Below, piece by piece: positions 588 through 1,756 of a stretch of DNA of 64,000 nt. The notes below the pieces were generated by a model, which worked only from the letters and a program-made list of their open reading frames with translations, had not been told where the DNA came from and did no database searches. This DNA is from Rhodoglobus sp. (lineage in GTDB: Bacteria; Actinomycetota; Actinomycetes; Actinomycetales; Microbacteriaceae). The stretch spans positions 4,878 to 68,877 of the forward strand of contig JBJXDR010000113.1 of NCBI GenBank assembly GCA_046155245.1. Direction: 5' to 3'. The stretch's first letter is position 1. Every line of letters begins with the position of its first letter. The position numbers and the translations under genes were made by a program.

Positions 588-595
588 CGCGCTCT

Positions 596-695
596 TTCCG
601 TCTCAAACGACCGTGCCAACCGGCCTTCTCTAGTTAGGGATCTGTCCGAGCCGATTGGGAGCGACCACGGGGAACTGTCTCACGCAACATGGCCA
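596..695 (+). repeat. Left end: two spaced putative transposase-binding sites
   Basis: GTCTCA-N7-GTGCCA at 600-618 and GTCTCA-N7-TGGCCA at 677-695. Confidence 0.7.
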
Positions 696-734
696 AGGGT
701 GACAGCCTGAGATTCGGAATACTCTCGATACAAG

Positions 735-1589
735 ATGACAACCTTGCCCGCCGACGCTCACGTCCATAGCGAGTGGTCATGGGACTACGGATCGGACCCG
801 ACGTCGAAGGGTTCGATGGTACGGACCTGTGAACGCGCGGTTCGGATCGGACTGCCGGCCGTCGTGTTCACCGAGCACCTCGACTTCGCAGACGGCTGGC
901 GGGTCGGAGACGGCGACATCGGCAAGCACGCGCAAAAGTACGTCGACGCGACTGGATATGTGAACCTTCCACCCTTCGACGCCGAGGGCTACCTGGCGGC
1001 GATCGAACGGTGCCGTCATGAGTACCCGGAGCTCCGCATCCTCACCGGTGTCGAGTTCGGGCAGCCGCACCTCTGGGACGCGAGCGCCGCGGCTCTGCTG
1101 TCGAGCGGAGCAATCGACCGCGTCAACGGGTCGCTGCATATGCTCCCGTTCGACGATGGAAACCGGACGGAGCCGACCACGCTGTACCGCTACCGCCAGC
1201 CGGACGAGGTGATGTGGGCGTACCTCGAGGAGATCCCGCGAATGGTCGCCGGGTCGGACTCGTTCGCGGTGTTCACTCACATCGACTACGCGGTGCGCTC
1301 GTGGCCCGTGTCGACGGCCGGGCCGTTCGACCCCCGCCGGTTCGAGGATGGGTTCCGGGCGGCGATGCGCGCGATCGCGGACTCGGGGCGGGCGTTGGAG
1401 ATGAACACCCGGCGCCTGTGGCCGTGGATCCCGCAATGGTGGGCCGAAGAGGGCGGACACACAGTGTCCTTCGGCAGCGACGCTCACGGTCCCGAATCCC
1501 TCGCAGCGAACTTTCCCGAGGCTATGGCGATGGTCGAATCTTTCGGGTTCGGACCAGGGTCCCGACCCGAGGACTTCTGGACTCGCTGA
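735..1589 (+). CDS. PHP domain protein (histidinol-phosphatase-like)
   Basis: DAHVHSEWS, FTEH, GVEFG, HIDY and FGSDAH metal-binding motifs of the PHP fold. Confidence 0.9.
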   Translation: MTTLPADAHVHSEWSWDYGSDPTSKGSMVRTCERAVRIGLPAVVFTEHLDFADGWRVGDGDIGKHAQKYVDATGYVNLPPFDAEGYLAAIERCRHEYPELRILTGVEFGQPHLWDASAAALLSSGAIDRVNGSLHMLPFDDGNRTEPTTLYRYRQPDEVMWAYLEEIPRMVAGSDSFAVFTHIDYAVRSWPVSTAGPFDPRRFEDGFRAAMRAIADSGRALEMNTRRLWPWIPQWWAEEGGHTVSFGSDAHGPESLAANFPEAMAMVESFGFGPGSRPEDFWTR

Positions 1590-1604
1590 ACGCTGCCGTC
1601 TGAG

Positions 1605-1689
1605 TCGCCAACGGGAGTGAGACTTGGCCACTCCGATGAGACGCTGGCCAGGTCGGATGAGGTTTGGCCAGATCGAATGAGACGGAACA
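1605..1689 (-). repeat. Right end: four contiguous putative transposase-binding sites with 20-bp period, terminal ACA
   Basis: T(G/C)GCCA at 1605, 1625, 1645, 1665, each followed by TGAG(AC/GT) after 6-7 nt; ends GGAACA at 1689. Confidence 0.85.
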
Positions 1690-1756
1690 GCTCTTCCGGG
1701 GACGGCGTGCGCACCTGACAGGCGACACCCTCTCGTCCGTCCCCGAGGAGCACACT

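Follow-up and report, generated by a model that had tools for sequence, protein, structure and literature searches.

How did a phosphoesterase gene of the PHP family come to lie between two genes of a conjugative transfer module? The question is raised by a 64,000-nucleotide stretch of Rhodoglobus sp. DNA (contig JBJXDR010000113.1, positions 4,878 to 68,877; the window), in which the PHP gene occupies a 1,094-bp segment at positions 596-1689 inside an integrative and conjugative element (ICE). A reading made from the window's letters and open reading frames (ORFs) had proposed that this segment is a minimal Tn7-like transposon (the sequence-only reading). The segment is an insertion; it very probably descends from an actinobacterial Tn7-like transposon but has no transposase, and after its insertion into the ICE it has probably become a relic. 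It adds a natural case to a known class of elements and leaves the known mechanism unchanged.

Empty and occupied alleles of the locus were compared to establish that the segment was inserted. The window minus 596-1694 was aligned with related ICE loci (80 reference loci), and the alignment was contiguous across the join in five reference-genome ICEs at 88-92% identity (L179, L183, L184, L186, and L187). The exact 88-aa DUF6112 protein encoded upstream of the element is recorded in 119 blocks of a public collection, and the allele state was read at the 10 places listed among these blocks. Nine of the 10 (L309-L311 and L313-L318, from metagenomes and genomes) are empty and match the window without the element at 95-96% identity, and the tenth (L312) contains the element at 99.8% identity. 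In the nine empty alleles, 70 nt separate the two DUF6112 genes, a distance equal to the 8 + 62 nt that flank the element in the window counted with a single GCTCT. This match in spacer length means that a 5-bp target-site duplication fits, though the core sequence of the spacer differs. Other occupied copies came from other runs (L283, L302, and L322-L325); SRR33138554, SRR28962023, ERR3200803, and SRR28285719 are among the runs with the occupied allele. Every copy found (at least eight contigs including the window, in two haplotypes) is at one ICE site. The empty site anticipated by the sequence-only reading is accordingly represented by 14 related ICE copies that lack the element, but not by its exact sequence.

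The ends of the element have the asymmetry of Tn7-like transposons (Table 1). Two left-end sites, L1 and L2, are spaced 77 bp apart, and four right-end sites, R1 to R4, are packed head to tail with the consensus RTCTCA-N7-TGGCCA at a 20-bp pitch. A repeat finder returned a 24-nt terminal inverted repeat (596-619/1664-1687) with 79% complementarity. TCTCA-N6-8-TGGCCA is found three times in the window, always within the element, compared to 0.09 expected, and none of 100 shuffles of the window reached three matches. Three of the five matches to GTCTCA-N6-8-TGGCCA in the whole 2.47-Mb genome are inside the element. The cis-acting sequence kept by the element amounts to ~105 bp at the left end with two spaced sites and 86 bp at the right end with four, and the arrangement suggests that the 20-bp sites are bound by a cognate TnsB. 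Most of the layout had been predicted correctly: the GCTCT direct repeat is present on both flanks, the four contiguous right-end sites and the inward right terminus were confirmed, as were the two widely spaced left-end sites, and the insertion starts 3 bp past a DUF6112 stop codon, with the TGA ending at 587 and the repeat starting at 591. The TGT...ACA termini held at the right end only, which closes with ACA; the left terminus reads TTCCGTCTCA without the outer TG.

Table 1. Features of the window, with positions, strands, and the support for each
Feature	Position	Strand	Support
Probable non-autonomous Tn7-like element, 1,094 bp	596-1689	+	Absent in 14 related ICE copies; ends homologous to Luethyella tnsABC element
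Left copy of 5-bp target-site duplication GCTCT	591-595		Sequence; 70-nt spacer of empty ICE alleles fits a single copy
Right copy of 5-bp target-site duplication GCTCT	1690-1694		Sequence; spacer length of empty alleles
Left terminus TTCCGTCTCA	596-605	+	Inverted copy of right terminus, minus outermost TG
Right terminus TGTTCCGTCTCA, read inward (1689 to 1678; + strand ...GGAACA-3')	1678-1689	-	Luethyella counterpart TGTCCCGTCTCA
Left-end site L1 GTCTCAAACGACCGTGCCAA, presumed TnsB-binding	600-619	+	16/20 identical to Luethyella L1, at equal distance from terminus
Left-end site L2 GTCTCACGCAACATGGCCAA	677-696	+	16/20 identical to Luethyella L2; same 77-bp L1-L2 spacing in both elements
L1-L2 intervening block TAGGGATCTGTCCGAGCCGATTGGG	636-660	+	17/25 identical to Luethyella left end
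Right-end array, four contiguous 20-bp sites	1604-1683	-	89% identical over 84 nt to Luethyella right end
R1; R2; R3; R4	1664-1683; 1644-1663; 1624-1643; 1604-1623	-	Head-to-tail
Possible -10 hexamer TACTCT, 9 nt before ATG	720-725	+	Inferred leaderless promoter
PHP-family phosphoesterase gene (cargo), 284 aa, HisJ-like	735-1589	+	Pfam PHP, 7e-13
Upstream flank, DUF6112 small membrane protein of ICE transfer module	321-587	+	Pfam DUF6112, 6.9e-34
Downstream flank, second DUF6112 protein	1757-2026	+	Pfam DUF6112, 3.4e-22
TraG/VirD4-type coupling protein	7345-9156		4.7e-28
AbiEii-type nucleotidyltransferase toxin domain in 569-aa ORF, inside ICE	16503-18212		
Tyrosine integrase	18234-19556	-	
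HipA-family kinase gene, just past integrase	20358-21668		

An autonomous relative with homologous ends connects the element to a transposition system. A BLAST search of the 105-nt right end against 401 family genomes gave one real match, 89% identical over 84 nt, in Luethyella okanaganae CCUG 43304. The end motif marks both ends of a 19,405-bp chromosomal element in this genome (G094:C2:671175-690579). The Luethyella termini, TGTCCCGTCTCA...TGAGACGGGACA, are perfect inverted repeats of 12 bp that include TGT/ACA, the separation of L1 and L2 is as in the window, four sites are packed at the right end, and GGACA is found on both flanks. Identity between the two left ends is ~69%, with each of L1 and L2 matching at 16 of 20 positions and the intervening spacer at 31 of 57. 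Selection on the 20-bp sites would produce such a footprint of higher identity in the sites than in the spacer.

Three transposition genes are present in the Luethyella element. The tnsA, tnsB, and tnsC genes read inward from the right end and the cargo lies toward the left end. TnsA (257 aa) scores 195 bits against NCBIfam NF033179 TnsA_like_Actin (cut-off 110), TnsB (667 aa) contains rve and Mu-transpos_C domains and has the TnsB proteins of ShCAST and Tn6677 as its best PDB matches (5e-10), and TnsC (344 aa) is of the TniB type (1.4e-19). A 393-aa ORF after tnsC was checked as a TniQ/TnsD selector and had no Pfam, NCBIfam, or PDB match, and no conserved attachment gene or tRNA adjoins the right end. 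The cargo (L279:13705-19192, L280:520-4194) includes JetA (DUF3375, 1.9e-134), JetB (DUF4194), and a JetC-like SMC ATPase, which together are a Wadjet-type anti-plasmid system, along with a UvrD helicase accompanied by an AAA/SMC-N protein, and a Phd/YefM antitoxin. The expectation of the sequence-only reading that the end motif should also flank transposase genes and other cargo is borne out by this element, which has both tnsABC and the Wadjet-like genes.

Directly next to the left end of the Luethyella element lies another Tn7-like right end, which has diverged (G094:C2 ~690580-690740). Read inward, this older end is TGTCCCGTTTCA, in which GTTTCA, TTCTCA, GTCTCA, and GTCCCA follow one another with a 20-bp pitch. 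A 190-aa TnsA-like ORF (L280:4802-5374; TnsA-like is also its NCBI name) is located ~220 bp inside the older end and shares 64% identity with the first TnsA. The left GGACA of the newer element doubles as the final 5 nt of the older end; therefore, the newer element inserted exactly at the older terminus. The tandem arrangement resembles the arrays at Tn7 attachment sites.

Other candidate parents did not share the ends. TnsB relatives were detected in 10 of 151 family genomes at no more than 43% identity, and those in G006, G101, G001, and G074 were inspected and have unrelated end sequences. A TnsA with 82% identity (P0126) is encoded on a JGI contig of sample 3300078620, and the metagenome relatives of this TnsA, at 35-60% identity over the best segment, have a different end architecture. 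The loose pattern TTCCGTCTCA-N6-8-TGGCCA was run against all reference genomes, and the matches listed, which were not inspected individually, are scattered over unrelated phyla and gave no hint of a related element. Another actinobacterial Tn7-like element (L301; G074:C22, contig end 4700-4960) has a TnsA at 44% and a TnsB at 40% identity, and its contig ends in repeats of GGTCCAGRWAYCTGGGACA, which appear to be a distinct family of TnsB sites.

The host genome lacks the genes that would move the element. The assembly is a metagenome-assembled genome of 2.47 Mb in 191 contigs with 94.8% completeness. No tnsA, tnsB, or tnsC gene is found within 596-1689, and tblastn and genome searches detected no TnsA, TnsB, or TnsC homologue and no second copy of the element ends in the assembly. 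The window element also has no selector gene. Because there are no TnsB and TnsC genes, the window element is a non-autonomous derivative rather than a full Tn7-like transposon, in agreement with its original description as transposase-less. The parent transposon would have had a heteromeric TnsA + TnsB transposase with a TnsC/TniB ATPase. Integration would have proceeded by the staggered-cut, cut-and-paste chemistry of the Tn7-like family and would have duplicated GCTCT in the spacer that separates the two DUF6112 genes in the ICE transfer module. The transposition proteins may have been supplied by an autonomous relative such as a Luethyella-type element, and the actinobacterial clade of the Luethyella element is presumed to be both the parent lineage and the protein source.

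Sequence differences between the two haplotypes bear on the present state of the element. The left junction is GCTCT followed by TTCCGTCTCA in haplotype A (the window and L312) and by TTCCCGTCTCA in haplotype B (L283 and L322-L324). The left end begins TTCC in haplotype A and TTCCC in haplotype B, and G or TG is missing in all copies; compared with Luethyella TGTCCCGTCTCA, haplotype A has lost the G of the left 5'-TG and haplotype B has the same loss. Over 1,275 bp, 15 positions distinguish the haplotypes: the left end accounts for six, the right end for three, the upstream gene for two, and the 855-bp PHP ORF for four, of which three are synonymous. Per base, the ends differ ~8 times more than the ORF; thus, the ends evolve at about the rate of silent sites or faster, and the ORF is preserved. 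The loss of the left TG in all copies and the drift of the ends alongside a conserved PHP ORF indicate that the element is probably now an immobile, fixed relic, although it would once have had all of the cis sequence required for movement.

Several observations weigh against a Tn7-like origin of the segment or against details of it. The literal empty site TGACGC-GCTCT-TCCGGGGAC was not found among the alleles compared, and the nearest empty alleles have a different 9-nt spacer core of the same length (CGTCGAACT versus GCTCTTCCG). A 5-bp duplication is the most economical interpretation of the flanks and not the sole one because TGT is missing from the start of the left end; a 3-bp GCT repeat combined with a CT-for-TG terminus predicts the identical empty site. 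The Luethyella duplication is less clean than it looks because its left GGACA is the final 5 nt of the older abutting end. Among 185,579 species genomes, the tight pattern TGGCCARNTCRNWTGAGACGGRACA occurred at both Luethyella element ends and nowhere else, and it had no match in JGI metagenome contigs; one autonomous relative with these ends was thus found in the former and none in the latter. A second insertion site of the mini-element was not found, which leaves the mobility of the mini form a conjecture. The 20-bp sites are putative TnsB-binding sites, so assigned by their layout and conservation.

A radically different explanation is that the segment is not a transposon at all: PHP would have entered an ICE hotspot by recombination, and the 20-bp repeats would be operators of a regulator. 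Unrelated inserts without Tn7-type sites do occupy the same position in other ICEs, but both ends of a tnsABC element from a different genus have homologous repeats, spacing, and inverted termini, the insert is bracketed by GCTCT as an exact 5-bp repeat in direct orientation, and the empty alleles have the matching spacer length. These features make recombination without transposition highly improbable. A Tn7-like element could also have reached its present size in place, through the insertion of a full-length element with PHP next to its left end and one internal deletion that removed tnsABC and the remaining cargo. The location of all copies at the same ICE site agrees with this route, and with the Luethyella gene order a single deletion from inside R4 to just past the PHP stop codon would yield the observed structure; selection against a 10-20-kb insert in the transfer operon would favor the deletion. 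However, no larger element occupies the ICE site in the 80 reference loci or in the 10 listed contigs with the exact DUF6112 protein. The end-points, 14 nt past the PHP stop codon and at about the inner edge of R4 with all six sites intact, would be a coincidence under in-place decay, whereas selection of the mini form for mobility would predict them. Trimming in place is a real but lesser possibility, and the balance leans toward arrival as a ready-made mini-element moved in trans because the deletion end-points lie at the inner edges of functional sites and no larger allele was seen at the ICE site. The earlier proposal of a minimal element mobilized in trans into a conjugative element stands as to the insertion in the ICE; movement in trans is no more than the likelier of two routes, since all copies are at one site.

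Continued mobility of the element, with a left end that works without TG whenever a cognate TnsABC enters the cell, is unlikely. None of the six 20-bp sites is damaged, nor is the right ACA-3' terminus, and the element persists in several samples; on the other hand, the TGT/ACA termini of the autonomous Luethyella relative are perfect, a single insertion site is known, and the ends diverge between haplotypes at the rate given above. Changes in TGT/ACA immobilize mini-Tn6022, yet target immunity is still conferred (PMC11014353). A speculative role for an immobile element, which is slightly less probable again, is a form of vaccination of the ICE, in which the six TnsB sites would trigger target immunity against cognate Tn7-like transposons and PHP would replace a function lost at the rsmI-metG locus of the chromosome. 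Target immunity of the Tn7 type protects nearby DNA through TnsB-driven removal of TnsC, and in the Tn7 paradigm conjugating DNA is attacked preferentially. If this were true, immunity together with the PHP function would explain why a dead mini-transposon is retained in a transfer operon across samples.

Descent from a Tn7-like transposon, the preferred reading, places the element among several known systems. It resembles Tn7 and mini-Tn7 in its spaced left and contiguous right sites, 5-bp duplication, and ACA-3' terminus, and in ends of ~100 bp that suffice in cis for proteins that can act in trans. The sequence of its sites (RTCTCA-N7-TGGCCA) is unrelated to that of Tn7 and two left sites were seen rather than three; it is natural instead of engineered, is not at a glmS-type site, and has lost the left TG. 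Defective Tn402/Tn5053 derivatives, the backbones of class 1 integrons, lack tni but keep IRi and IRt and move when Tni is supplied. They share with the window element the non-autonomous state, multiple transposase sites per end, a 5-bp duplication, passenger genes, and transport on conjugative elements, whereas the Tn402/Tn5053 family has no TnsA and targets res sites, and here the parent has TnsA and the target was an intergenic spacer of an ICE. Mobile insertion cassettes (MIC231) and Tn3-derived TIMEs are also transposon ends around passenger DNA without a transposase and likewise depend on a cognate element elsewhere, but they derive from the single-protein transposases of IS231 or Tn3 rather than from a multi-protein Tn7-type system. 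The nearest system is the Actinobacteria-dominated Tn7-like clade (NF033179 TnsA_like_Actin) represented by the Luethyella element, which has homologous ends, the same site layout, and a 5-bp duplication. The window element differs from the Luethyella element in being 1.1 kb and not 19.4 kb, in lacking tnsA, tnsB, tnsC, and a selector, in its cargo, and in residing on an ICE and not in the chromosome.

Full-text literature searches returned no description of natural transposase-less Tn7-like cassettes. The survey of Benler et al. 2021 required tnsB (PMC8649781); therefore, transposase-less cassettes were invisible to it. More generally, surveys anchored on tnsB miss cassettes of this kind, which move single chromosomal genes onto conjugative elements. 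According to that survey, no member of its Actinobacteria-dominated TnsB clade 2 has been characterized experimentally (PMC8649781). For this actinobacterial Tn7-like clade, the element defines the minimal cis-acting ends as they occur in nature. For comparison, mini-Tn7 needs only 144 bp of left-end and 70 bp of right-end sequence (PMC11014353). The ends combined with the Luethyella tnsABC genes are a design for a mini-transposon tool in Microbacteriaceae and their relatives.

PHP is the only gene inside the element, as the sequence-only reading had it: it is the sole ORF in 596-1689 with a family match. The PHP protein scored below the family cut-offs of the NCBIfam histidinol-phosphatase models. 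PHP homologues, 59 from reference genomes plus the closest metagenomic sequences (88-89% amino acid identity), are in ordinary chromosomal neighborhoods without the end motif. Nucleotide homology to the chromosomal PHP genes spans 734-1587 only, which corresponds to the ORF, and a close relative (at least 90% amino acid and 86% nucleotide identity) is part of the core locus rsmI-PHP-metG-tatD-ksgA-ispE. Because the nearest homologues are in core loci without the end motif and the homology stops at the borders of the ORF, PHP was captured from a chromosome. As candidates for further copies of the element, the closest PHP proteins (P0002-P0004, P0121, and P0123) were rejected, all being encoded by ordinary chromosomal genes without end motifs. 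In the host genome rsmI adjoins metG with no PHP between them (C39:3727-5978), in contrast to the rsmI-PHP-metG order of relatives, and the ICE-borne PHP is the only copy of its family in the 95%-complete assembly. This passage of a housekeeping-type gene from a core locus to a transposon to an ICE, in a host whose chromosome lacks the gene, illustrates a route of gene spread.

Expression of PHP may involve its own promoter or that of the transfer operon. The upstream motif GGARTACTCTCG is common to the chromosomal PHP homologues L002-L005 and L056, and this motif, represented by TACTCT in the window, may be the -10 element of a leaderless transcript. A sigma-70 consensus scan found no promoter, and no terminator was predicted within the element. 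The lack of a terminator and the orientation of PHP, which matches that of the transfer genes, make operon read-through plausible.

Within the left end, the block between L1 and L2 listed in Table 1 is more similar to the Luethyella sequence (17 of 25 positions) than the whole L1-L2 spacer with the block included (31 of 57) or the remainder outside the block (~14 of 32), which is close to random. The block could be a site for a host factor or an accessory protein.

The DNA around the element is an ICE of the type IV secretion system class, in which genes for a coupling protein, the mating pore, and an integrase are grouped in a single block. The pilin role that the sequence-only reading implied for this operon is hypothetical for DUF6112. 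The block also encodes an M23 peptidase and a polytopic 429-aa protein, and the ICE cargo includes the AbiEii domain and an SNF2-type helicase protein. A relaxase and VirB4 were not identified by Pfam among the ORFs tested. The DUF6112-DUF6112 spacer of other ICEs contains unrelated inserts of ~1.8 kb (L180, L182, L188, and L189) or 232 bp (L195), and L181, L185, and L237 have still other unrelated inserts there, for an overall size range of 0.2 to >2.9 kb. The Tn7-type site motif is absent from the inserts of these eight loci, and only the window-type copies fill the spacer with a Tn7-type element. The unrelated inserts show that the spacer is a general cargo hotspot. A small reverse-strand gene is shared among several of the hotspot inserts. 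All of the inserts stop just before a conserved GGGAC(A/G)GCGTGCGCACCT box (1700-1717 in the window), which may be a regulatory element.

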